A stretch of 63,918 nt of DNA, the filler included, from Streblomastix strix (Eukaryota): assembly GCA_008636045.1 (NCBI GenBank). It is 4 parts of 4 records of this genome, joined end to end, with 100 filler letters (N's around TTAATTAATTAA, not from the genome) between each part and the next. Parts side by side here need not be neighbours in the genome. Positions count along the whole stretch, not along the records: positions 32,019 to 47,918 come from SNRW01000909.1; 3 more parts are not named here. The stretch is one strand, 5' to 3'. Shown piece by piece: positions 15,911-48,142 of the stretch. Every line of letters starts with the position of its first letter. The stretch's first letter is position 1. Both the position numbers and the translations under genes were made by a program. Under the pieces are notes generated by a model. That model searched no databases and was not told the DNA's origin. It was given only the letters and a program-made list of their open reading frames with translations.

Positions 15911-16010
15911 NNNNNNNNNNNNNNNNNNNNNNNNNNNNNNNNNNNNNNNNNNNNTTAATTAATTAANNNNNNNNNNNNNNNNNNNNNNNNNNNNNNNNNN
16001 NNNNNNNNNN
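15911..16010. other. Artificial contig linker (Ns with TTAATTAATTAA spacer)
   Basis: Same 100-nt N/TTAATTAATTAA/N block occurs three times; flanking genes are cut. Confidence 0.97.
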
Positions 16011-31150: not shown

Positions 31151-31918
31151 TTTTCTGCTAATAAAATAATTAATATAATCAAAATATTTGAGTACAATAA
31201 TAATATTCTTTTGATGGTAAAATGAATGATTTTGTATAAAATTGTTTCTCGGGTTTATGGAGAATTAAAAATAATAATAAATAAAAATTTTGTAAGAGTG
31301 CGTATATTATTGTTTGATAGGACATTTGAATAATAAATTAAAATTTGTGTACGGAAATAAGAGTTAGTGAAAGAAAATGAAACTCGATTGTGATTTTCTT
31401 GTCATTTGTAATGCAATTATGCATATTAAATGAAAAATAAACTAAATATTTTACATACATATTATTTTTGTAATAAATAAACTTTTAATAATCAGAGTGT
31501 TGAGAAGTGAACAAGTTCCGAATAACGAACTATTTTGATTAAGAATAATCTTTATTTTATTTTATTTTATAATAATAATTATTATTAAAGTATTTTACAA
31601 ATTATTGTTATTCGAACATGGAGAAATAAAGGAGCTAAAACTTGCAGACCGCGCAGCTCACTCGTTGATTCTTTATATAGGTTATGATATATGAATTGTT
31701 ATTATCTTTTATTCTTTTAGTCAAAATTTCGATATTTTATTATTATATAATCAGTGTTAACATAATTATTCAAAATCGAAAAACAATTTTCATATTTCGA
31801 ATGCGATAGACTTATTTATTCATTTTTATTTCCATTTTTAATAATAAATATTTATTATTTTAATTTATTTTCTATGAAATGTATTGAGAATGATTGTTGT
31901 AATATAGAATTTGATAGC

Positions 31919-32018
31919 NNNNNNNNNNNNNNNNNNNNNNNNNNNNNNNNNNNNNNNNNNNNTTAATTAATTAANNNNNNNNNNNNNNNNNNNNNNNNNN
32001 NNNNNNNNNNNNNNNNNN
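31919..32018. other. Artificial contig linker
   Basis: N/TTAATTAATTAA/N block. Confidence 0.97.
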
Positions 32019-32590
32019 TTTTTCATTAACTAATTGTTCAGAGTTAACTAATTTGTCTAATTTCATCATGATAGGTAATCTGTCCGATCAAGTTTTCATT
32101 AATGAAATTGAAATAATGGCATCGAATAATTAGTCGATGGCTGAAATACATTATTTGATGAAATTAGTGGCGATGAACAGCTTCAGAATTGATTAAAATA
32201 ATTGTTTTTAGAATCTATGACCTGCATATGACCTTAGGATGGTGTATCAAAGTAATATGAAAAAATTGATTTTTTTATAGAAATTTTGACTTATCATAAA
32301 TTTTTTTTATTATGTAGACTGAAAAATCATGGAAAAATTGAAGTTTTTTGAATGACCTGAGAATTGATATACTAGTCAATGTTGATACGCTGATCACGAA
32401 TATGATGATAAAAATGAGATTTTGGACTACTGATTCTGTCGAATTGTGCAGAACAATGTAATTGATTAATGGAGTGAATAAATGATATGAATTGTTCATA
32501 TGCTTCGAGTGCATTGAGAGCATTGGGTAACAAGCTGACAGGTTGGATTCCCACCATATCAGACATATTGCCATAAAGTTAGAATCACGG
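32019..32590 (+). repeat. Terminal/subterminal repeat of element 1 (direct copy of 39015-39570)
   Basis: tttttcattaactaattgttcagagttaactaatttgtctaatttcatcatgatagg.. is identical for about 120 bp, then progressively diverged. Confidence 0.88.
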
Positions 32591-32911
32591 ATAAACGATA
32601 TGAATTATCTATGTGTGCCAATGTGCCGACTTAGACCCCTCTAAAAAATCCATATTAGCAGAAGTGTGTCGGTCGGTCGCTCGGAATATTAATTATAGCA
32701 GTCCAATTAAGTGATTGATAAAATTTCTGTCCCATTAATATATCGATGTGCTAGCGGAGTGGATAAATGATATGAATTATCTATAAGAGACAAAAGGACG
32801 GGACGGGACAAAAATTTTTAGTCCTGAAGAATTTGTCTGCCATATACTATATGCCATAAATTAAATAAAATTATTTTTAGGAACTATTTGAACTTTTTAT
32901 TCGAAAACAAA

Positions 32912-35743
32912 ATGGCAACAGAAGAATTTCAAATGACAAATCAAACTAACAAACAAACGTGAAATGTGGGACACTTGAGAAAGGACCAAAACGTAAATAT
33001 ACTCGCAAATCAAAAACAGGTGAGAAAGCAAAACAGATGATTGAAGAAATGATTAATGGATAAACTGCTGAGCAGACAAATGAACAGACAAATGAATAAA
33101 TTATTGAACCAAGTAATAGATAAATAATTGAGAAAAAATATGACGAACGCATTCATGATCTAATTAATTCTGAATGTGATCTTGAAACAGGACTTGCAAA
33201 TTAATAATTAGCTTATAGATTAGAAAAAAATAGAGATGACAATATTTTTCTTGAAATGATACAACCGACAGCGGAATTATATATGTAAGAAAAAGATTCA
33301 AGAACAATAATTGAACGCGTTAAAGATAGTATGATTAACACAGTAAATTATACAAAAGTAGGCTAATAAGAAGGTAAAAAATAATAAATAACAGGAAGAT
33401 TTATAGATCTATCATTAATGGATGACGATAAACTATGCGTAATTGATATAGATATTCATAAGGATAAATCAATTGAAGAAATTGATAAAATTGGATAAAA
33501 TCTAATTGATTCACTTCCACCAAATGTAGGTTTAGTTAAGATTGCTCATGGAGGACTACACATTTATTGCAATAGAAATTACTACAGATTATCTTCCAAT
33601 CGTAATGGGAAAGTTACTGCTATAGATAGTTCTGATATTGATGTATTTGCATAAATAAATAAATATAAAATTGAAAATGGATTAGAGACTAAAGAATTGG
33701 TTTAGAATCGAGTAATTGCTCCAAATACATCTATTCGAGAAACTAAAAATAATTAACGAATTACACTCAAATATGAAGCAATTAATGACTGGGAAAATGC
33801 ATCTCATTTAGCGAGCTTGCGACAGATACTTGACAAATGGAATATTGATATTAAGATATCATAAAAAGATTACGCATAATAGTAACATGATAGAATATAT
33901 GGAGTATAAATCGATGATGAAGGTACAATTGAACAAATGAATGATGAACTTGCAAAAGCGTGTGTTGATGGATTGAAATCTTGATATAGATAATTTTCCT
34001 TAACCAATCAATATGGATGTATCTCTTCTAAGTATATTCTGTGGATTATTTTGAATCGCTAATGAATCAATTAGAACTGAAGGAATAGGAAATATACGTA
34101 AATTTAATATGCTAACTGCAAACGCTGATAAGAACTATGAATAACCTTCGTCTAATGGCGAACGTAAGCCTAATCCATGGATCATTACAAAAATCCAAAG
34201 GTATCATAACAAAGACTACTACGAATAGATAATTAAACCATTATTGAAAAAGAATTATGAAGCATAAAAGAAGGAAAAATAAATCATAATTAAAATGACG
34301 TTGATTCCTAATAAGATTGATCTATAAGATGGATTCATATTACTTGATATGTAAGAGAAAACAGCTAATAGAGAATACGAAAATGAAGAATAAATCGTTA
34401 TAGATTTAAAAAGATAATTAATATACTACGACGGTGAAACTTAAGATATATATGCGATTAAAGGGTATGATGCTATTTGCGACACACAAGTTTTATATCA
34501 TAAAATAGAAGGAACAGTCTACAAATAATTAGAGAAAAAAATATAAATTTCAAAAATAAGAAAACTGATGAAAAGATTGATGATAAAAAGGAATCTAAAC
34601 AATTAACTGCAAAACTTATCTTTAAGAGATATGCTTCAAAATTTGCTAAGAAAGGATGTAAATTCATTAGTGAAGATCCAAAAATTCTCACAGTATTCCA
34701 AGGATATAAGTATAAATAATTAGATACAATTGATTATGAATGTTTGCAAAAGTATCTTGATTTGATTAAAGAAGCTATTGCTGCATGTGATGAACGAATC
34801 TATGAATATATTCTTAATTGGATTGCATGAATGATACAAAATCCTGGGAAAAAGTCTAGCGTTGCAATAGTATTATAAAGTAGATAAGGTATAGTTAAAA
34901 TAGATACACTGATGTAATCGCTGAACTAACAAGCAGATATAGCTGTCAATATATAACTAACATGGATGAATTCACAGGAAGATTCAATTCAGTAGTTGAA
35001 AATAAAATTTTTGCAGTACTAAATGAAATGATGAATTATAATGATTGAAAGAAAGGTGTTGCAACAGTAATGAAATCAATTATTTCTGATCTAACTATAA
35101 GAATTAATGAAAAGAATTAACTAAGAAGAACTGTAAAGAATGTAATGAATATAATCTATATAACAAACGCTGATATGCTTGTATAATTGGACTCTGATGA
35201 CAGACGTCATTTAGTATGTGCTTGTAAAATTATTCATTAAGTAATTGAAGAACATAAAGAAGATGCTGATTATTTTAATGAATTAAGCTAAAGTTACACA
35301 TAATAGTTTTATGAAAATTTAATGATATTCTTTCTTGAAAGAAATATTTCATAGTTCAATCCAACATTAATTCCAATGACTGAAGCTAAAAAATAATTGA
35401 TAAATGTTGACCGGGAACCAGTAGATGATGTAATTATGGAACATTATGAGCAATTCAAATATGGAATTCCAATAGCTTTTGTAACTTAATGCAAACCATA
35501 GAATAGGTAATTATAAACATATAAGAATACAATGGTTCACAAATTTGAAGAATAAAGAATATAAATTTTAATGGAATAAGAACTAGAATATATGTATTAA
35601 ATAAGGATTAATAATCGTATTATGATAAAATGATGAATGAAGAAGATTCTGAAACGTCTAAAGTAAACTATTAGAAATGTAAGAAAACAATTGAAGATGA
35701 TGAACTCATTGAATAGGTAGTATAGGAGGCAAAAGATGAATGA
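32912..35743 (+). pseudogene. Prim-Pol (AEP primase-polymerase) fused to SF3 helicase (D5/NrS-1/DUF5906-like), copy 1, disrupted
   Basis: LCVIDIDIH and LVKIAHGGLHIYCNR Prim-Pol motifs; YEYILNWIA*MIQNPGKK, degenerate Walker A, FTGRFNSVVENKIFAVLNEM. Frameshifts near 33980, 34900 and 35570 plus internal TGAs. Confidence 0.85.
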
Positions 35744-36403
35744 AAATGAATTTATTTTTGTTCAGACATTTATGGCAGGCTTATCGATTAATGGGACAAA
35801 ATTATCTGTCCTCATTAGTGTATGCATGCTAGCGGAGTGGGCAAATTGAATAATTATCCATATGGGACAGTTTTTGGGACGGGACAAATCCGTGGACTCC
35901 TGTGAAAAAGTGCTGCCATATTGCCATTCATGCCTTTAATGAAATCAGTGATAAAGTGAATTTGTGATAAAAATTTTTTTTGAAAATGAACGATTCTATG
36001 ATTAATGAAAATCCTAAAATATATTTACGAAAATGAATGTGGGACAAATTTAAAAGTCAATATTTGGAAAGGCTGCCATAAAAATCTCTTTATTATAAAG
36101 TATGGATGTGCAATTTAGATAGAACGTTCAATAGCTATGGAGAATTAGATTCAAAATGAATGATATGGCATTATGGCACGATGGTAGATGATATGCACTA
36201 CCTTCAGAATGCTGTCCAGTCCCGTCCCGTGTCCCACATAATCAAATAATCAATTTACATATATAATAGAAGGATATTCTATAGGATTCTAGTTCATTAA
36301 CATATCTCATAAAAAATAAAGGGACAAATCTGAAAGTCAATCTTTGAATAGCCTGCCATAAAATTTTATAATTATTATTACTATTCATTAGCGCAAAAAC
36401 AAA

Positions 36404-37609
36404 TCATATTTATTGATTATTTTGTTAGTTATATCGATCAATTATCTCACTAATTTAAAGAAAATCCTGTACGTTAGTTATGATAGTTTTCTAAAGACGT
36501 CGAATCAAAAGGAGTTATAAATCGTAAGCAGATGCACGGAATTCCTATCGCTGAATTCTATACTTTTATTGGGCATGGGATCGTTACTCTACGGCAATAC
36601 GTTCAGCTTCGCATGATTACGAACGAATCACATTCAATAATTTAATAATTAATTTACTTGAATTTTCATCTATATCTAATGAATAATATTATAATTTTGT
36701 TCGTTAATTATCGATAATAATCTCATAAAATTTATTCAAATCAATCTCATATAACTCTATTCGATAGATAGCTGCATCACCACTCATAATCTATCGTTTC
36801 TTCATTATTTCTCCAAAACTGATGCGCTTGAAAATTTCATTCACTAATTATTTTATTGATTTATTATATCTTAATGCAGTTGATAGAGGAACATATGATC
36901 CAATCAATTGGTAAATATTTTCTTGAAACAATAGTCTTCCCATTCGTCCATTTCCATCTTCGTACGGATGAATGCGTTCGTATAATAGACGACATGCAAA
37001 CATATCCATAATCTTATTTGGTATATCATACTCATAAACGAAGTCCACTAACTATTATAGTTCATTTGGATCGATATTTTCATGTTATATTCCAACAATA
37101 GCAGCATAGATTATTTTTGAATTATTCTTATCACAAACATATACGCTACAATGTCTAAATGTCTCTCTTTTGAATAGTGCTTAGTATAGTCCTTCGATCA
37201 ATGGCACTTCATTACTCTTAAAGTATTCAATTGCATCATTAATATCATTTTTTGGTAATATATCTTACTCAATACAGTTAAAATCCATAATATTCTTATA
37301 CATTAATCTATCTAAATCAATCGGAGCCAATATCTTACCTATTTAGTCAGATCCATCATCATTGAACGTTATTGTAAATTCATTAATTTTTATAGTTTAT
37401 CTTGGAATCTTTTTAATAATAAATGAAATGCTATTCGACATAGTTGTTGGAACTTCATTAATGTTCATCGCTATTGCAAACATTGGCTTGTTTCTTATTG
37501 ATACATCTGCATATAATACTTTAACGAAAGAAGATGAAAAGACCCCAATAAATTTATCATTTTATTCGTGACTATTAGACCAGTTATTTATAGTAAAAAT
37601 AAATGTCAT
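36404..37609 (-). CDS. Fic-domain protein (AMPylase family), C-terminally fused in frame to the tail of the AT-hook protein
   Basis: 401-codon open frame under table 6 with YERIHPYEDGNGRMGRLL (HPFxDGNGRxxR motif). The last ~68 codons (36404-36610) match 43093-43292. The true start may be downstream of 37609. Confidence 0.85.
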
Positions 37610-38196
37610 TGAAAAGATCAGTATCACCATCTGAAAAAATAAGTTAAAGAGGACCTATCTCCCTACGTTAATCCATACCGACAATTCCAGCCAAAGTTGA
37701 AGTAGATTCACCATTCAAAAAGGAGTAAGATAAAATGTCTGTTTAATCTGTTCGTTCAAGAAGAAGTTCATCAATATTTGAAGAAATAATAATACCTTAT
37801 CCATCAGTACGTCGATGGCTACTTGATTTAATTAGTGAAGATGAACATATGATTAAGGAATCAGCCCATTTCATATTATCAGATCATTATTTAATAAGAG
37901 TTATTATATATACATTTGATGTAGTAGAAAACTAAGTTGTACTTAATACAAAAGATGAAAGATGTTGTGGCAAATTTGTGCACGATAGCACTAGAACATT
38001 AAGAGATATCACAATTAATAATATAAATATACTTACTCTAGATATCGAGAAAGTAAATCTTCTCAGAGATTCATATAAATTATGCTTATAAAATGTTAGA
38101 AAAATAGCTAGTATTCTCGATCTAAGAGATATATCATTTAAACTAATGTCTGCAGCAAGTAAATTGTTAATGGCAGTTCTATCACAAATTCATTGA
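37603..38196 (+). CDS. Hypothetical element protein, 197 aa
   Basis: Intact ATG..TGA frame under table 6 (MSLKRSVSPSEK..PYPSVRRWLLDLI..RCCGKFV..), no introns. Confidence 0.65.
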
Positions 38197-38222
38197 AGGT
38201 TCTATATTATTTTGGTAATTAA

Positions 38223-38716
38223 ATGGCTGATACAGATTTATACTTACTAGATGCGCTTATAAAACATGATGAAACTATATTCGAAACATTAGAAATAATT
38301 CAAATGGTTTTGTTCAATAAGTCGAAAACATTAATAATCAAATCAATATGATAAATAATGCTCATGTACCTGATGTATATACTAGACCTGAAGCAAATGA
38401 AATATTTGAAACAAAATTAGATAAAACCGATACTTATACGAAAACTGAAACCGATGCTCTACTCGATGTTAAAACTGAAAAATCTGAACTAATTGATGCA
38501 TATATTAAGTCCGAAACTGATACAAAGTTGGAAGAGAAGGCTGATAATATTGAACAAATCGATGCATATACTAAAACTGAAAACGATACTATACTCGATG
38601 ATAAAGCAGAAAAAATTGAATCATTTACAAAAATTGAAACTGATACCCTATTCGATGATAAAGCTGAAAAAACTGATACTTAAACTAAAATAGAAACTTA
38701 AACTAGTAGTTAATGA
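38223..38716 (+). pseudogene. Fibre-like repeat protein (xYTKxETDxLLDxKA(D/E)K repeats), frameshifted and truncated by element 2
   Basis: DVYTRPEANEIFETKLDKTDTYTKTETDALLDVKTEK..DAYTKTENDTILDDKAEK. The repeat series stops abruptly at the AGTAGT terminus at 38705. Confidence 0.65.
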
Positions 38717-39570
38717 AAAAGACAAATGGCCCCACATTGATAAATACCGTGATTTGCCCACAGCAGAAATACCTAGTAATATTACGAATTTCTGACGTAT
38801 GAAAAATGAATTGATTATCCAGAACCGAAAATCAATGAATAAATTGATGTTAGTAAAGAAATAAGGATAAAATAATAAATTATAACATTTATGAATATCA
38901 TTAGTAATGAAAAATAATTGATATGATTTATGATATGTTTTAATAAAAAAAAATTGATCTCATTTCTGAGACCCACAAATGAACAGGATTTAGGCACTGT
39001 TTCGGGCATTGGTCTTTTTCATTAACTAATTGTTCAGAGTTAACTAATTTGTCTAATTTCATCATGATAGGTAATCTGTCCGATCAAGTTTTCATTAATG
39101 AAATTGAAATAATGGCATCGAATAATTAGTCGATGAATGAAATACATTATTTGATGAAATTAGTGGTGATGAACAGTATCAGAATCATGAATAAACAATA
39201 TTTTTGGATTCCTCATATGTGATATGACCTTAGTGAAGAATATGAATGAGATATGAAAAATTAAGTTTTTAACGGGAATTTTGAACTATCATAAATTTAT
39301 TTTATTTTTATTATATAAACTGAAAAATCATAGAAAATTTGAAGATTTTTGAATGACCTGAGAATTGATGCCTTAGTCAATGTTCATACGCTGATCTCGA
39401 ATATGAGGTTAAAAGTTAGTGAATGGACTGATGATTCGGTCGAATAAAGCAAACTAATGAAAAAGATTAATGGAGTAGATAAATGAAATGAAATGTCCAA
39501 GTGTCCTGAGTCACAAGCTGAACTCATCGGATTCCCGTCATTAGCCATAATGCCATAAATTTGAATCATG
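38705..39570 (+). repeat. Putative terminal inverted repeat arm of element 2
   Basis: 5'-AGTAGT start; non-coding; distal part shared with element 1. Internal inverted repeat 38707-38723 / 39012-39028. The partner arm is not in the window. Confidence 0.65.
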
Positions 39571-39737
39571 GAGATATCGATTGAATTACATTAAATGGAA
39601 AACAAGACAGATAAGACAAGACAAGATAGAAAAATATAAGACACCAAAAGTTGCAGGACAGATGGACAGATGGAAAGATGAATCAAAAATAAAAACTGTT
39701 TTTCTAAAACTATTTCAATATTTTATTTTTCTGGAAA

Positions 39738-42395
39738 ATGGAATAACTGGCAAACAACATTGAAGACAGTAAACTCATTGAATCAATCTTGAGCTAATCA
39801 ATTGAAAAGAATATTAAATGTATGACACTTGAGAAAGGACCAAAAAGGCAATATAATCGTAAATCAAAAACATATGAGAAAGCTAAAGTATTAATTGATC
39901 AGATGATTAATGAACAGACAAATGAACAGAATAATGAACAGATAAATGAATAAGAATAAATTAAAGAGTAATCTGATCCACAAAGTGATTTTGATTTATT
40001 CTATGAAATATTTTCTGAATGTTTCACTAAAGCTAATGAATAAATATAATCCAAAACAATCAAAGAGAGAATTGATGGAGCTATCATTGATTTATATGAA
40101 TATCGAAAATTCACTGATTTAAAACTTAAAAATAAGTAATAAACAGGACATATTGTTGATTTTAGTTTATGCAAAGACGATAATTTTTGTATTATTGATT
40201 TTGATATTGATCATGCTGGTAAATTGAATGAAGAAGAGAAAGAGAAAATACAATAAAATATAATCAATAATATTCTTCCAAAGAATGTTGTTTTAGTTCT
40301 AACTGCAAGAGGTGGAATACATGCATATTGCAATAGGAATAGGTATAAATTACAAACAAACAGAAATGAGAAAGTGATAGTATATGATGATAATCTTGAA
40401 ATTGATATCTTTGCATAGATGTATACACATAAAGATGGTGAACTAATAGCGAATCGAGTAGTACTACCAAATAGTAAAGTAAGAATCATAGAAAAAGGAG
40501 TCTAGAAAAAAGATATACTTCATTGTAAAGAACTTAACGATTGGTCTAATGCTCTTCGTCTAGCTTCCTTGCATAATATTCTTGGTAGTTGGAATGAAGA
40601 TTTAATAGCAAAAGATGATGACATTTCTAATACAGTTTCATACGATTGTATACTTGAAGCAATGCCAATTGAGATAGCTGATGCATGTATATAATGTTTG
40701 AAAGGACTAACTATTCACATTGATACAAACACATTAGCAAAAAAGATAAGTTTACTTCCATTATTCAAGGGACTAAACGGATTAGAATAAACGAAAGATA
40801 AATATTATAAAGAATATACCTATATAACTGTTTATAGAAATAATATACTCACACCAAAAGCAAATGAACATTGGAGCGATAGAAAAGGAAGATATTCCAG
40901 TAGAGCTAATGCATGGATACTAACGAAAATTATTAAACTTCATAACAAAGAATACTATGAAACAACTCTTAAACCTTTACTCAAAAAGAGATTACAAGAA
41001 AAAAATAATTAAAAGCATGAGATAAAATTGGAGACGATTGAAAAATAAAGAATTGCTATCAATGATCCATTCATATTTGGAAATATAAGTGAAAAAGCAA
41101 CAAGAGGAGAATATAAAGAAGAAGCAGATATTGCAACTGATTTAACTAAGGTAATTAGATACTATGCAGGTGAATCTTGATTAGTGCTTATAATCAAAGA
41201 ATATGATGCCTAATAAGATATTAATGTAATGAGCAATAAAACAAAGACTAACGCCTATGAATAAATGCACATAATTAGATTATGTGGTTATAGTAAAAAA
41301 CATATAAAAGTATAAGATATTTTCGAAAAATATGATGGATAATATGTTGTTGAAGGAGTTAGATTCAATTCAGATAATCCAGATGTATTCAATGTCTTTC
41401 AAGGATTTAAGTATGAAAAATTAGAATAAGTGGATGAATCAAAGATAGATATGTTCATTAATCATCTGACATATGGAACAATTGCAGGAGAAAACTAAGA
41501 GGTTTTTGAATATATTCTTAATTGGATTGCATTCATTGCATAAAACGCAGGATAAAAAACTAGAACAGCTATCGTTCTTCAAGGACTATAGAGAATTGGT
41601 AAAAACAGATTCACTGATGCTATTTCAGAAATGTTCTCACGATATAGTCAACCAAATATATCTACAATCGAAGAATTCACAGGAATATTCAATTCAGTTG
41701 TTGAGAATGTAATGTTTGCAGTTCTGAATGAAATGATAAATTATAATAAATCTAAGAAAGGTATTGCACATGCAATGAAGAAAATAATTACAGATAAAAC
41801 TATAAGAATTAATGAGAAAAATTACTCAAGACGAAGAGCTGAGAATGTAATCAATACAATAATAGTAACTAACAATGATTACCCAATCTAATTAGATAAT
41901 AGAGATGGACGTTATTTAGTGATAAAATGCAAAGCAGTTCATAGAGGAGATCATGAATATTTCAATATGCTGAGCAAAGGAATGGATAAAGATTTTTATG
42001 ATAATTTATTAACATTCTTCCTAAACAGAGATATCTCAAAGTTTGATCCAACTGATTTTCCTTTGTCTGATGCAAAGAAATAACTGCTAAATGTTTGTCG
42101 AACACTAGTTGATGATATTATTATCAAAAACTATTAGAAATTTAAAGATGACATTCCTATATCAGAGGTAAGCTAAATGAAACCAAATAATTGGAATGAA
42201 CGAAGCTTCAAACATTCGATCTTGCAAAAACAAACTGAACAAAGAATATGTATAGATAAAAAATAAGTTAGAGTATTTAAATTACTTGAAGAAAATTATT
42301 CAGTTTATGACGATATGATAAATGATCTAGATAAAGAAGAATAACGTGAAGAATAAGAGAGAATAGAAAATGCAACTGAATATTTTACTGAATGA
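39738..42395 (+). CDS. Prim-Pol plus SF3 helicase, copy 2 (885 codons, one in-frame TGA at 41178-41180)
   Basis: FCIIDFDID, LVLTARGGIHAYCNR, NRVVLPNS. Helicase TAIVLQGLQRIGKNRFTD (Walker A), FAVLNEM (Walker B variant), IIVTNN (motif C). No frameshift. Confidence 0.88.
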
Positions 42396-43092
42396 ATATT
42401 ATTTTTGTTCATAAACTGTGGAGAATTAATGTGAAATCCTTGTTGTGACAGATTCTGTTTTATTCTGTCTTAATTATATTAGTGATGTTCACTAGCCATG
42501 GAATATTAATGTGAAATCCTTGTTGTGACAGAAAAGACAAGACAGAAAAAAGTTTATCGTCTAATGTTGATGTACAGATGGACAGTTGGACTGATTATAA
42601 AAAAATCATGTATGATGTATAGTTGACGTATTAGAATCAATACGTTTTCATATATCTGTACCGATTATGTTGGTTCTAAGCAATAATATTCATTCCAATA
42701 TGTTTGGTGTCGAATAATGGATGGAATCCAAATCTGTCTAACTATCCATCTGTCCATCAACTTTTGGTGTCTCTTATTTTTCTGTCTTGTCTTGTCTTTC
42801 TGTCTTGTATTGAATTTAGATCTAATCCTCCATAGCTAGTGAATATCACATATAAATGTACAAGATAAACAAGATAGAAATAATGAAAGTGGACATTTTG
42901 ATTCAATTACTATGATTATCGCGAATCATTAATGAACACACATCAAAGCAAAAATAAATTCGAGCAACCGACCGACCAACTATTATTTTTGTCAATTTTA
43001 TGGTTTCTATCCTGCACACTTGTATATATGAACAATTCATTTCATTTATCCACTTCGCTAACACACACCACTAATGCAAAAATGAATCATAT

Positions 43093-43500
43093 TCATTGAT
43101 TATTTGGTTAGTTATATCGATCAATTATCTCACTAATTTAAAGAAAATCCTGTACGTTAGTTATGATAGTTTTCTAAAGACGTCGAATAAAAAGGAGTTA
43201 TAAATCGTATGCAGATGCACGGAATTCCTATCGCTGAATTCTATACTTTTATTAGGCACGAGATCGTTACTCTGCGGCAATGCGTTCGGCTTCTTCTTGT
43301 GAGCAATATTTTTTAGGTCTACCTCTTGGTTCTATTTTCTCCTCATTTAATTATGTCTATTGAATAGGATTAAATGATTGATCGATTAGCGGAGCATGAA
43401 GCACTTCATCAGTTGGAATGGATTATGTTTCAATCAATTATAAAACTGGTTTCTTCGATTATCTTTTACGGACTTGTTTTGTTTCACTGATTGCTTGCAT
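43093..43500 (-). CDS. Small AT-hook DNA-binding protein, 135 aa
   Basis: Intact frame MQAISETKQ..EPRGRPKKYCSQEEAERIAAEQR..YNQPNNQ*, with an AT-hook RGRP core followed by a basic helix. Confidence 0.75.
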
Positions 43501-43519
43501 TTCCTTTTAAGAAAAACTC

Positions 43520-44478
43520 TCAATTACTTATATTAAATTAACTTTTATAATTTGCTGGTAATGAATTTATATCATCACTAAAAAATTTACAATAATATAT
43601 AGGTAATTCAATAACATTAATTTTTTCATAAGAATTCAATAATTTACACTCAACATTACCGTTCTTATAAGCAATGAATGTTGCTAACTCATTGAATTAA
43701 CGTCTCTATTTCTAAAATCTTATAAGTAATCTAGAGAAATCAGCGTGGATCATTAATATATTTCCACTTTTGAAAATTATTAAATTCTATTGTTATTGCC
43801 TTTTCATTACTTGTTCCAATTACGCATATCTTTGTCGTATGAATTTACCATCTAGCTCTCTATTTTACTACACTTATTTTGGAGTAAATCTGTTCATAAA
43901 TGCAAGGTGTGGAGTTTTATTGTAAATCAACCATTTATTCCATCTAGCTAGGCGTTGCAAAACCTTATAAATCTTATCAAAATCCGTTTCTGATTGTGCG
44001 AATGACGCTATAAACTACTCTGTTATGTTATATAAATGGAGAACCTGTAAAATATAATGATAACATATTATCATCACAAAATTTTCTAATAAGATTAGCT
44101 TTAAATCCAGTTTCACCATCACCTCTAATATTGGTAACGTATATTTAATTAATGAGCTTCTTTAATGCAGCTAATATAAACGTAGCATTTTTCTCATCTA
44201 CAATTAATGGAATGACAACAAAATATTTTGTATTAATGTTGGTCGCAAGTAAATAATGCTATCTCCTTTGAGTAACTGGATTAACACCGAATACAAGATC
44301 AATCTCCCAAGATCCAAGTTTTGGAGAAAAATATGGGCGTTAGAGTTTGTTTAATGGCTTCACTTTATTATTTTTTATTTAAGTTTATTGTATTATCTTC
44401 ACATTTGTTAATTTTTTCATATTGTTTGATCTTTGATTTGAAAGGAAATAATGAAAGAGGTTTTTGAGGCTAATTTAT
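43520..44478 (-). pseudogene. Retroviral-type (RVE) integrase of Polinton type, disrupted
   Basis: RPYFSPKLGSWEIDLVF (D1, 44298-44309), NIRGDGETGF (D2, about 44112-44123), HNRVVYSVIRTIR (third acidic residue replaced), YNKTPH. TGA at 43977-43979 and frameshifts; ends approximate. Confidence 0.85.
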
Positions 44479-44850
44479 TCACTAGATTTATTCAGTGACA
44501 TATGATCTGTTAGAATCTTGGCTTTTGATAGATCTAGCTCGTCTTAATGGATCATTATATTTTTCTGCTTCTGTTTAATATATTTCGAACCATTCAAGTA
44601 GTGTCTTTCCACTTATCTATATTTCATTTGCATGATTAATTAAAATATTTTATTCTTCTTTACTTGGTGTTATTTGTATATTTGATATAAACTGTACAAA
44701 TTTCATTATTCCAATATTTGAGTTCGCTAATTGTATGAGTTACTGCAACATATTATGTGATTCATATTCTATTTATTCATCTGTTTATGCAAATCTTGCT
44801 AACAATAATCAGTAAATTTTATCTTAATTAGCTTATGAATCTCTGTTCAT
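44479..44850 (-). CDS. Hypothetical element protein (123 codons, in-frame TGA at 44809-44811)
   Basis: ATG..TGA frame MNRDSQANQDKIY*LLLARFAQ..GKTLLEWFEIYQ.. Confidence 0.45.
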
Positions 44851-44875
44851 TTCTATTCAAAAATAATTATAGACA

Positions 44876-45025
44876 TCAGTGACAGATCTTACTCTCACAA
44901 GCATATTTGATAGCGGCTTCCCAAACAAATTTTCAGATAGACTTCCAATCAATATTCAATGATTCTAGAGCATCAATTGCAATAGTAATGTTAGCAGATA
45001 ATGGTTCAAAGATAGGCATTTTCAT
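44876..45025 (-). CDS. Small hypothetical element protein (49 codons, in-frame TGA at 44933-44935)
   Basis: MKMPIFEPLSANITIAIDALESLNIDWKSI*KFVWEAAIKYACESKICH, tightly packed between neighbours. Confidence 0.35.
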
Positions 45026-45044
45026 TAGTGCAAAAATAAATCAA

Positions 45045-45524
45045 TCACTCTAACGTTTTAACGAATCCATCTAATTAATTTATATAATTATCTCGTATTT
45101 CTCTATATTCTTCACAAACATTATGAAGCTTATTTTCGACACTACATTCAGAGCTCATCCATAGAATCTCATCTTTTATTCTATTTTTAAGCGACATTCG
45201 CTTTTCAAATGCAGTATCGCAATATGCCTCATCAAAATATAATTCATCAAAGCATATAAGATCCTTTTTACTATTTATTTTCAGTAATTCACCTGCAAAT
45301 CTTAAATAGGATGCTTAATCGAAACGTACTGGCTTCTTTTTATTAGTTCCACAAGATAATCCATCAGTAATTTTTGCATCTATTTTTCTTTCACAGTTGT
45401 CCAATCCATCAAGTAGCATTTATAATTGCGCAGATAAGTTGCTTAAAGCTCATGTTTATTCTATCGATTGTATACATTATTTTAGTGTATTAACTACTTC
45501 GTTTTGCTTTTTTTATTTACTCAT
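45045..45524 (-). CDS. Hypothetical element protein (159 codons, in-frame TGA at 45450-45452)
   Basis: MSKQKKQNEVV..EQT*ALSNL..PVRFDQASYLRFAGELL..LDGFVKTLE*; no frameshift. Confidence 0.5.
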
Positions 45525-45548
45525 TTCGATTAAGTAAAAATAATATAA

Positions 45549-47918
45549 TCACTATTTAATAAAATAACTATCTGCACTAATATTATTGATAAATGGAATA
45601 TATGATTGATTCGATAATACTATCATCTTAGTATGAGATCCCATGATTGCATTTTTCTCCATTTTCAACCTGCTAATAGTACCTTTCCTCTACGCTAATG
45701 TTGTATTAATAGCTGTTGCAAAAGATCCTTTGTTAATGCAGTCTATAAATGTTTGTTCATTAATCTATGGATTTTAATCCAAAATAACGCCTTTAAAAAT
45801 AATCTCATTATTAATAATATAATTTTTAGGTGATAAAACTATGCAATTATAACCATATTTTTCCATATCAATATGAAGTATTTATTTCTATCCATTCTCC
45901 GAAAACACACAATCTTTGTATCTGTCAAAGAACCCCTAGTTCTTGATGACTTCATCAAATAACTGTTCTGGACCTCTGTTTGGATTACCACTAATTGCCC
46001 AAGTTAATGAATCAGTATCTCCTTGTACAAAGTGCATCCTATTCATATCATACGCTTTGTGCATAAAATTATATATGAAATTAACATACCAAAATTTCGC
46101 AGAATCTAATACAAAATAAGCAACTTATAAACATGTATTACACCTGCAATTTTCTCTATCTACTTATACAGCATATAAATCATTATTTAACTCAGTCGAA
46201 TGAAAGAATTCACCCATCATATGCTATATGAATGTCATATTTGCAGAGAGTAATCTTGTATTTGAATACTTTTCACTATTCAATGCACCACCTCCAAATG
46301 CTGAATTCAATGTTAACTTACAGAATTATGATAATCCTTCATTTTTATCATCTTTCGCTTGCTATCGAAGATTCAAAAATTCTTTCACGAATGAGTTGAA
46401 ATTAGTGTGTTTCGTGAATATTGTAGCACTACAGGGTGGGGAATAATTCCATGGCCGAAGTTCAGAACAGCAAAGGTATATCTATGAATAATTAAATATA
46501 AATATATATATGATACATTGTATTATAGACATTTTTAAACAAAACATAAATTTCATACTCATAGGGGTTGGTATGGATTTTTATGATCTTTAGTTTTATA
46601 CTCATGGAAAAAAAATTTAAAATTATATGCTGCTCCAAATTTTGAGAACTTTTATATCTGATGTATATATATGTACTACATATACATATATATACATAAT
46701 AAAAATATAATACAATGTATCATATATATATTTATATTTAATTATTCATAGATATACCTTTGCTGTTCTGAACTTCGGCCATGGAATTATTCCCCACCCT
46801 GTAATTATCTCATCAATTTCATTATGACATGTATCAATTAGTAGCCATAAATAGTAGTTATTGAATGACATTATTTCATTTTTGGTATTCTATAAATTCG
46901 TTAATTTACGTTCAGTTTTATCATGCGGAAGTTAGTAATTGACTAGATGGTTTTAAAGAAATTCGCCAATTGTCTCTTTATTTGTTGTGATATCAATATT
47001 TTTCAGAATAGAACCTCAATTGATAACTTCATTCAAATATTTCTCATCAACATGACCCTTAATCTCAGCTACAAATATTAACATTTTATCGGCTACTAAT
47101 GGATCTTCAGAATATCTATTTTAATCATATATTAGTGTTTTGCATCTATCTTAATCAGTAATCTTTACAATAATTTATGCAAACATATATATTATATGAT
47201 TTATGTATGGATTTAACGTATTTGGTTCACTGATCATAACATTTGGGTATTAACTATGAAAATCTAACTAAACTACATGAGTAACCACATAATCTGAATC
47301 TATTGAATATATATATTTGTTTTCATAATCAAATTCGAAATGATTAATTCTCGTTTCTCCTGCAATATTGTATCTGTGTATCACATTTGATATACCTCCT
47401 GTAATATCTTTACGCAATAATTGATATCTTTCATCGCTCGTTAATGTCACGGGTAATTGTTTAATTAACGCATATTTCTTTAATTGTACCATTAGTTTCA
47501 TTTAGTTTTCTTCACTATTACTTTTGTATACATTACAGTACAAATAACATGGAATTACATTATCTTTTGAATGTCCATTGTTATTATCTATTCTATCTAA
47601 TGTGGACCAATGTTTCCATGTGAATCGTGCGTTGCACATATGGCATCGTTAATTCTTGAATATTTCTTTAAAATAATCATAATTATCAATCGTTACGTTA
47701 TTGTTTGAATCTTTATTCTCTTTACTATCTTATTCAATATAATTATCCACTTTAGCTCTCCAATAACACTATGTGATTTCGATTGATTTATCTGTGCTTT
47801 CACAATTATAATCTCCATTGATATTAAAACCATTATATGCCATAGAATATTTGATTGCATTAGAGCACTAAGACATAGATAGATTGGCTAACATGTCCAC
47901 TTTAAATTTGAACATTAA
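45549..47918 (-). pseudogene. Protein-primed family B DNA polymerase (5' part missing) with internal HNH domain; interrupted by a MITE and a TGA at 47016-47018
   Basis: LRKDITGGISNV (YxGG), LDFHSQYPN (motif A), CKLTLNSAFG (motif B), FVQGDTDSL (motif C), LSPKNY. The frame is restored when 46432-46803 is removed; stop at 45549-45551. Confidence 0.92.
46432..46801. mobile_element. 370-bp non-autonomous Tc1/mariner-type MITE with perfect 96-bp TIRs and TA target duplication
   Basis: TA|CAGGGTGGGGAATAATTCC..GGAATTATTCCCCACCCTG|TA; arms 46432-46527 and 46706-46801 are exact reverse complements. Confidence 0.93.
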
Positions 47919-48018
47919 NNNNNNNNNNNNNNNNNNNNNNNNNNNNNNNNNNNNNNNNNNNNTTAATTAATTAANNNNNNNNNNNNNNNNNNNNNNNNNN
48001 NNNNNNNNNNNNNNNNNN
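47919..48018. other. Artificial contig linker
   Basis: N/TTAATTAATTAA/N block. Confidence 0.97.
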
Positions 48019-48142
48019 AAGAAAATAATAATAATTAATAAATTAATAAATAATCGGGAAAAAAGAAGAAGAAAGGTAAAAAATATTCAGATATGGAAAA
48101 AGATCCAGATCAAGAAATCAAAAATAATGAATCATAATAAAA

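Follow-up and report, generated by a model that had tools for sequence, protein, structure and literature searches.

Iteron-like repeat modules bracketing two diverged primase-helicase genes in dead copies of a virus-like element in the Streblomastix strix genome

The superfamily 3 (SF3) helicase initiators of polyoma-, parvo- and geminiviruses recognise tandem repeats of 4-8 nt, such as the GAGGC pentamers of simian virus 40 (SV40) large T, the GAGC repeats that Rep of adeno-associated virus (AAV) finds in the inverted terminal repeat, and the lineage-specific iterons that geminivirus Rep finds in its own promoter. Iteron plasmids carry helically phased iterons of 17-22 bp and show Rep-iteron incompatibility, and in phage P4 the alpha protein binds the ori and crr repeats through its C-terminal part. 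In the P4 record (NC_001609) the alpha gene (4636-6969) is preceded by ori and followed directly by crr, and the two share the same 8-bp repeat in both orientations. A comparable arrangement is described here for a stretch of 63,918 nt from the oxymonad Streblomastix strix (assembly GCA_008636045.1), referred to as the window, in which two primase-helicase genes, copy 1 and copy 2, are each bracketed by three repeat modules. An earlier note on this DNA had reported pentamer arrays around both genes (GGGAC for copy 1, AAGAC for copy 2) and had interpreted the two units as swappable replication cassettes in which each helicase variant co-evolves with its own binding sites.

In the available text of Barth et al. 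(2024, Virus Evol, PMC11296320) inverted repeats beside the primase-helicase of Polinton-like viruses (PLVs) are proposed to be its origin. The same text describes the exchange of replicons and of sub-genic domains, with mobile helicases invading element ends and replacing replicons based on a DNA polymerase of family B that is protein-primed (pPolB). For S. strix itself, the portion of Bellas et al. (2023, PNAS, PMC10120064) at hand reports endogenous viruses of Maverick/PLV type, with TAA and TAG encoding glutamine in the viral genes.

The window is AT-rich eukaryotic DNA (G+C 20-30% in most 1-kb bins), and long frames appear only once TAA and TAG are read as glutamine (table 6); code tables 11 and 4 were rejected since they give no long frames in the window. 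The two genes and the modules that accompany them are the following:

32912-35743, plus strand: copy 1 primase-helicase pseudogene, clade B, with five or more frameshifts and three or more TGA codons in frame (TAA/TAG read as Gln).
39738-42395, plus strand: copy 2 primase-helicase, 885 codons, clade A1, with one in-frame TGA.
~32740-32880, plus strand: copy 1 upstream module; box A 32747-32785, GGAC-GGGAC-GGGAC 32796-32809, TGCCATA 32838-32858 (nhmmer E 9e-23).
~35818-35954, plus strand: copy 1 downstream direct module; GGGAC at 35864, 35876 and 35881, TGCCATA at 35914 (nhmmer E 8e-21).
~36150-36280, minus strand: copy 1 inverted module; inverted octamers 36164-36180, GTCC/GTCCC 36214-36235 (nhmmer E 2.5e-17).
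~39570-39700, plus strand: copy 2 upstream module; AAGAC pentamers 39602-39629, GGACAGAT octamers 39656-39682 (E 9e-13).
~42481-42620, plus strand: copy 2 downstream direct module; AAGAC 42530-42550, octamers 42569-42595 (E 4e-21).
~42713-42850, minus strand: copy 2 inverted module; inverted octamers 42732-42758, GTCTT pentamers 42777-42812 (E 1e-23).

The pentamer arrays of the earlier note all lie where it had placed them and exceed chance, and they are not free-standing; they are parts of six homologous modules of ~130 bp. Each gene has one module upstream on the plus strand, one directly downstream on the plus strand and one inverted on the minus strand 100-200 bp beyond, and these layouts align between the two copies. 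All six modules keep the order box A (CTAGC..GGA..AAT), 3-4 pentamers, ~25 nt and 2-3 octamers. The arrays of copy 1 are GGGAC and TGCCATA, the latter being the octamers of its second array, which occupy the same module position as GGACAGAT of copy 2, where the pentamer is AAGAC. This holds for all three modules of each copy, so that in the two visible lineages the octamer as well as the pentamer is private to the helicase variant that it flanks. The GAC columns are invariant across the six modules and GG is replaced by AA in every pentamer between the copies. AAGAC occurs at 39604, 39613, 39618 and 39638 upstream of copy 2, together with two to three GGACAGAT units in 39656-39682, and at 42534 and 42539 downstream, where GGACAG(A/T)T follows at 42572-42595. 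Module identity is 47-71% within one copy and 34-48% across copies, and the genes themselves share 66-80% of their nucleotides and 44% of their amino acids.

Chance expectations were obtained from 100 dinucleotide-preserving shuffles for each test. The motif GGACGGGACGGGAC (at most three mismatches) gave three matches against 0.07 expected, AGACAAGACAAGAC (at most two mismatches) four against 0.23, and GGACAGATGGACAGATGGA (at most three mismatches) four against 0.00. Thirteen of the 20 GGGAC/GTCCC occurrences of the window fall in 32729-36321, and TRF independently calls period-5 and period-8 arrays at all three copy 2 sites. A hidden Markov model (HMM) of the six modules, run over the whole 63.9 kb, found no further full module and three box-A fragments beside the same genes; since only six full modules exist in 63.9 kb, the neighbouring genes do not share the module as a general promoter. 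The structure is real and non-random, and it would be a variation on a known theme, an initiator gene bracketed by its iterons, here in dead copies of a virus-like oxymonad element. The smaller related units are:

36041-36083, plus strand: extra short unit GGGACAAA...CTGCCATAAAA, with a second copy at 36321-36363 (86%).
36125-36160, copy 1 downstream side: partial box A, a partial module-HMM match.
42396-42452 and 42476-42532, plus strand: two tandem box-A units, 82% alike, which run into the copy 2 downstream module.
43010-43067, minus strand: inverted box-A copy outside the copy 2 inverted module, a partial HMM match.

The distance between the upstream arrays and the start codon is closely kept, the pentamers ending 103 nt from the ATG in copy 1 and 109 nt in copy 2, and the octamers 54 and 56 nt. 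The downstream direct and inverted modules are able to fold together into a long, imperfect DNA hairpin, at -64.4 kcal/mol (z -10.8) in copy 2 and at -53.9 kcal/mol (z -3.2) in the decayed pair of copy 1. The kept spacing and the strong fold of copy 2 would suit transcription signals, with the upstream module as promoter and the downstream pair as a hairpin terminator or 3'-end signal of convergent genes, and in both copies that pair does lie between the gene and a convergent minus-strand open reading frame (ORF). However, a promoter and a terminator of the same sequence are not expected, the module HMM finds no module at the other genes of the region, and tandem 5-mer and 8-mer arrays present in triplicate rather suggest multimeric binding sites. 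This promoter-and-terminator reading is considered improbable.

Related DNA was found in four sequencing runs, three of which are termite gut metagenomes, and 8842 contig pieces of run X1 map to 32019-43400 (at 80% likeness); therefore the whole stretch is a high-copy repeat. Over 39400-39760, where 214, 52, 45 and 15 contigs of the four runs map, 27 differences were listed at a 15% threshold. Only one of these falls in the copy 2 pentamer array (39627 T>C) and one in the octamer array (39675 A>C), and the 26-nt spacer between the arrays holds five polymorphic sites. Nearly all other copies have C at both array positions, which converts the AAGAT of the window to AAGAC, the fourth such unit, and its GGAAAGAT to GGACAGAT, the third. 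Contig depth is greatest at 39608-39672, which would be expected if many copies contributed all three of their module types there. The invariance of the arrays in other copies is footprint-like evidence for constraint and bears on the suggestion that the arrays are functionless, that is, slippage-prone microsatellite-like repeats in a duplicated non-coding segment which gene conversion keeps alike within a copy. Five- and eight-base tandem repeats arise easily, modules are more alike within a copy than between copies, as conversion would give, and both genes are pseudogenes. This explanation is nevertheless very unlikely. Lineages whose proteins are only 44% identical retain the same module order and the same places for the arrays; among other copies no part of the module varies less than the arrays, and the family consensus is more regular than the decayed window copy, where free slippage predicts the opposite.

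Both genes are inactivated fossils, copy 1 because of its frameshifts and TGA codons and copy 2 because of the damage that it has taken. Copy 1 matches clade-B paralogues, including the S. strix protein P0007, at 66-75% amino-acid identity in five frame-changing pieces, with an additional frame change right after the start. Codon 481 of copy 2 is TGA (41178-41180; a GGA>TGA nonsense change) where six of six close paralogues have glycine, and its residue 724 is glycine in a column that is arginine in at least 90% of 17 aligned relatives. The SF3 helicase core of copy 2 is recognised by Pfam (DUF5906 1.2e-12; VapE-like 9.6e-6), and Walker motifs stand at residues 621 (GKN) and 662 (VLNEM). The product also matches PHROG 'DNA primase' families and the NrS-1 helicase (profile E 1.2e-28). 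A fold search with the copy 2 structure model (Foldseek; mean pLDDT 67.7) returned the NrS-1 helicase, African swine fever virus (ASFV) PrimPol and the SaPI5 primase-helicase, with a probability of 1.00 for the SF3 helicase core; full-length ASFV PrimPol aligned over ~900 columns with a low TM score (0.2) and an E of 5.6e-7. No Pfam primase family matched the copy 2 product. In the alignment of 17 sequences the motifs DFDID, GGIHAY and IDIF occupy conserved columns, and D154, D156, G192, G193, H195 and D223 show little or no variation; conserved DxD, GGxH and xD motifs of this kind are what an archaeo-eukaryotic primase (AEP) would have, and the primase part appears to be of that type. The C-terminus (residues ~808-849, helices and a beta hairpin) looks winged-helix-like in the model.

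It is tentatively proposed, as the likeliest reading although at somewhat less than even confidence, that the modules are origin or iteron sites that act in cis and are recognised by the adjacent primase-helicase. The predicted product has the parts of a replication initiator, an SF3 helicase and AEP motifs, and the proposal is plausible because the layout mirrors that of phage P4. The adjacent primase-helicase would bind the arrays, presumably via its predicted winged-helix-like C-terminal part, and thereby start replication. The upstream module would serve as the origin and probably double as an autoregulated promoter, and the downstream pair, an imperfect palindrome, would be a second cis-replication region, like ori and crr around the P4 alpha gene. 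Differences in the repeats between lineages would give each enzyme variant its own origin specificity. We infer that each protein would bind its repeats and that replication would need them in cis. The replication-cassette interpretation of the earlier note is therefore upheld in part: layout, private repeats, array conservation and the P4 precedent speak for it, and co-evolution, cassette swapping and incompatibility among elements are what we infer beyond these.

Like P4, the locus combines primase and helicase in a single initiator gene with short-repeat arrays upstream and directly downstream in both orientations. It differs in that the crr of P4 consists of direct repeats of ~120 bp whereas the downstream repeats here, of ~130 bp, are inverted, that the host is a eukaryote with a non-standard code, that the primase is AEP-type and not of the P4 type, and that each module holds two array types (5-mer and 8-mer); moreover the copies are endogenous and dead, and the function of their arrays is putative. 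With the initiators of SV40, AAV and the geminiviruses it shares an SF3 helicase, tandem repeats of 4-8 nt by or in palindromes, a lineage-specific repeat sequence and, on the proposed reading, an origin that overlaps the initiator promoter; those proteins carry an origin-binding or HUH domain where an AEP primase is found here. Private repeats as a source of replicon specificity recall iteron plasmids, although Rep family and iteron size differ and incompatibility would here be conjectural. The 'replicative end module' of PLVs (PMC11296320) likewise places a primase-helicase by inverted repeats; the present locus has a fragment of pPolB at a distance of 3 kb, and its paralogues are mosaics of domains. 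Unlike that module, for which the available text names no repeat code, the inverted repeats here enclose one gene, and no tyrosine recombinase was seen. The endogenous viruses of S. strix (PMC10120064) share host lineage and code with the locus, and the primase-helicase is a usual replication gene in them; by contrast no capsid gene was identified in the window, where capsids were sought without a fold search, and repeat modules are not described in the portion of that report at hand.

The surroundings of the two units bear on a further possibility, that the modules are terminal inverted repeats (TIRs) or subterminal repeats of a mobile unit of ~3.3-3.6 kb. The shared flanks are:

32019-32607: left flank of copy 1; begins at an N run, with a box-A-like copy at 32466-32508 and TGCCATAA at 32569.
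39015-39588: left flank of copy 2; box A 39467-39499, copy-1-type octamers AGCCATAATGCCATAAA at ~39544-39560.
36393-36610: right flank of copy 1; on its minus strand the C-terminal ~68 aa of a convergent Fic-domain ORF.
43076-43293: right flank of copy 2; on its minus strand the C-terminus of an ORF at 43096-43635.

The left flanks show 79% identity overall (91% far from the genes and 81% closer to them) and the right flanks 94% over 218 nt, against 66-80% for the genes, which agrees with the diverged proteins and shared terminal repeats of the earlier note; the convergent ORF of the right flank encodes a Fic domain in copy 1 and a different protein in copy 2. Flanks that are more alike than the interior would, on sequence comparison, fit modular exchange, and the common flank context of the two units would equally be expected of a mobile unit whose TIRs were the upstream and inverted modules. 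The copy 2 inverted module contains an inverted copy at 42732-42826 that is 84% identical over 96 nt; in inverted orientation the module reaches 91% over 65 nt with the upstream module, and an outer box-A pair lies at 39467-39499 and 43029-43061; in copy 1 the TIR pair is weaker (59% over 127 aligned columns). The modules would then be sites for a recombinase or integrase that acts in trans, which the neighbouring Maverick-like element, for instance, could provide, and their purpose would be insertion and not replication, a role compatible in part with that of an origin. The high copy number in the termite-gut runs (the 8842 X1 pieces) agrees with it, as do one X3 contig that matches the module from 39576 rightward and differs to the left, a gene-less form among the contigs in which 32866 is joined to 35973, and the proposal, in the available text of Barth et al. 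(2024, PMC11296320), that mobile helicases invade element ends. However, the primase-helicase is the sole long frame between the repeats and no transposase or recombinase lies inside, no target-site duplication is definable, as the module edges are fuzzy in both copies, and searches of Pfam and of PDB sequences detected no rve integrase nearby. The internal direct module and the kept ATG spacing are left unexplained, and flank similarity stops near the module edge on the left and ~226 nt outside it on the right. A mobile unit is accordingly regarded as unlikely.

The gene-less joint also fits recombination between the two direct modules. A circular permutation as the source of these two modules was rejected, as the inverted module would then need to lie upstream of the gene. 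Another joint connects 32668 with 42987 on the opposite strand, and one X3 contig matches the copy 2 leader up to 39724 and then continues into a copy-1-type start, ATGGCAACAGAAGAATT; it may be a recombinant between lineages.

A search with the copy 2 product gave 26 matches among 4963 candidates, at the top of which stand 14 hypothetical S. strix proteins (37-87% identity), followed by metagenome proteins at 30-36%. A scan of viral contigs found no relative, one of metagenomes found a single locus (L001) and one of genome contigs found two, L002 and L003, the last a 140-residue bacterial helicase match. L001 (1-4011, a JGI contig) uses TAG and TAA as sense codons. It encodes the motif YCDTDS of a family B polymerase and, after it, a relative with 31% identity that comprises the helicase but no primase part. 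Plus-strand clusters of ATAC[AC] lie on both sides of this helicase gene, with 12 occurrences in 1400-1600 and eight in 3700-3899; other parts have 0-3 in every 100 nt. L002 (1-9384) comes from sheep colon and was binned as Bacilli, probably in error; it looks like the compact genome of a eukaryotic virus, with an AT-rich motif 'TTTTACAAAAATAAAAA..' before each gene, a weak A32/Zot-like ATPase match and a primase-helicase at its cut end. Its 9-mer arrays were rejected as iterons because they are coding and specify SESSQSSQS repeats. Bracketing arrays are therefore present at one of the two outside loci that could be judged, L001 having them and L002 having none upstream. The metagenome relatives P0015-P0022 and their cluster members use the standard code and lie mostly on contigs of 2.4-3.1 kb, which exceed the gene by only 100-500 nt. 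As to the idea of a free replicon of ~2.5-3 kb, 13 of the 22 listed members of clusters 1-8 are on contigs of 2.4-3.1 kb, one cluster extends to 7.5 kb, and lengths vary within clusters.

Several points weigh against the proposal of cis-acting iterons read by the adjacent enzyme. The pairing of array with lineage is visible in two lineages and one distant locus (L001 with ATAC[AC]), and L002 has no arrays upstream of its primase-helicase, its downstream side being cut off. The evidence for constraint is weakened in that the mapped contigs are all at least 80% alike and recent bursts of copying would produce a similar result. One contig family appears to pass from inverted octamers of copy-1 type to a GTCTT array like that of copy 2 (joints 36176/36178 to 42779). 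Only 21 nt match on the short side, so that this may be read as no more than a hint; if real, array type would be a matter of combination and not a single code for each lineage. Repeats that evolve in concert inside an element would make the three modules of one copy alike with no protein involved. The upstream and inverted modules form a TIR pair, which fits transposition or integration equally well, and the downstream palindrome between convergent genes would also be in the position of a terminator. Both genes of the window are dead and nothing functions here now.

The S. strix paralogues form at least three clades in a quick maximum-likelihood tree of 22 rows, which did not include P0009, P0014, P0016, P0020, P0023, P0025-P0027 or most of the cluster members:

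Clade A1: copy 2, P0048, P0002, P0043.
Clade A2: P0003, P0005, P0008.
Clade B: copy 1, P0010, P0011, P0013, P0004, P0007, P0012, P0006.

The alignment of P0001-P0008 indicates that these proteins are domain mosaics, as the identities of copy 2 to the other clades differ by part:

Copy 2 against clade A2: primase part 66-71%, helicase part 41-50%.
Copy 2 against clade B (P0004, P0006, P0007): primase part 47-49%, helicase part 59-62%.
Copy 2 against P0012, a more divergent clade-B member: primase part 39%, helicase part 52%.

The nearest relative of the copy 2 primase part is thus clade A2 and that of its helicase part clade B, and because the proteins are mosaics the 'helicase C-terminal clade' is not a simple label.

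Both copies are dead and lie inside a high-copy, virus-like repeat region of the oxymonad genome, in which replication genes of Maverick/Polinton type are present, namely PolB (PF03175) and the primase-helicases. The neighbouring genes are:

36407-37714, minus strand: Fic/DOC-domain ORF (Pfam 1.1e-5), inside the high-copy region.
45552-48086, minus strand: protein-primed PolB fragments, in pieces 45552-46601 (PF03175 E 2.8e-6) and 47019-48086, with a masked N run breaking the gene.

The deepest contig coverage of the mapped stretch is at 36.2-38.9 kb, around the Fic ORF. At 38410-38712 on the plus strand, four to five tandem repeats of 57/66 nt encode a TDxYTK(T/S)E(T/N)D-type peptide with a fibre-like look and no Pfam match. 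The minus-strand ORF 43980-44702 looks DDE-integrase-like by eye (WEIDLVF ... IRGDGETGF), but as a candidate integrase near copy 2 it was rejected, having neither a Pfam nor a PDB sequence match. Integrase, capsid, packaging ATPase and element-wide TIRs gave no Pfam match in 36.3-48.1 kb, the capsid having been sought without a fold search. A perfect inverted repeat of 98 nt (46430-46527 and 46706-46803) lies between the PolB fragments, and no known RNA family was found in 32019-47900. At 15911-16010, 31919-32018 and 47919-48018, 16 kb apart, stand pairs of N runs, each run 44 letters long and the two runs of a pair separated by 12 bases; they are masking and not biology. The ends of the region coincide with N runs, which hide where the repeat region starts on the left as well as some of the PolB gene, and a palindrome at 31912-32025 was rejected as an artefact of the masked runs. 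Elsewhere, in what is apparently the host part of the window, 1-642 and 13820-14466 form an inverted repeat of ~650 nt with 91% identity.

In the available text the inverted repeats of PLVs are only proposed as origins, with no repeat code named (Barth et al. 2024, PMC11296320). The present locus gives concrete candidate sites, 5-mer and 8-mer arrays in two diverged versions paired with two diverged initiators, and since two natural versions of array and initiator exist, specificity is therefore directly testable by array and protein swaps in vitro. If the proposed recognition of private repeats holds true, it would account for the coexistence of numerous related virus-like elements within a single protist genome and would provide a mechanistic handle on the exchange of replicon modules. 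A more speculative and rather doubtful extension is that the ~3.3-3.6-kb unit is a minimal self-contained replicon-transposon, made of one primase-helicase gene and origin/TIR modules of its own with a lineage-private repeat code, and that it moves in the manner of a cassette to a fixed site in Maverick-like endogenous viruses. If so, it would be a live example of the step in replicon replacement at which a mobile helicase invades a pPolB element, and different codes would let cassette lineages coexist in one genome without cross-activation.

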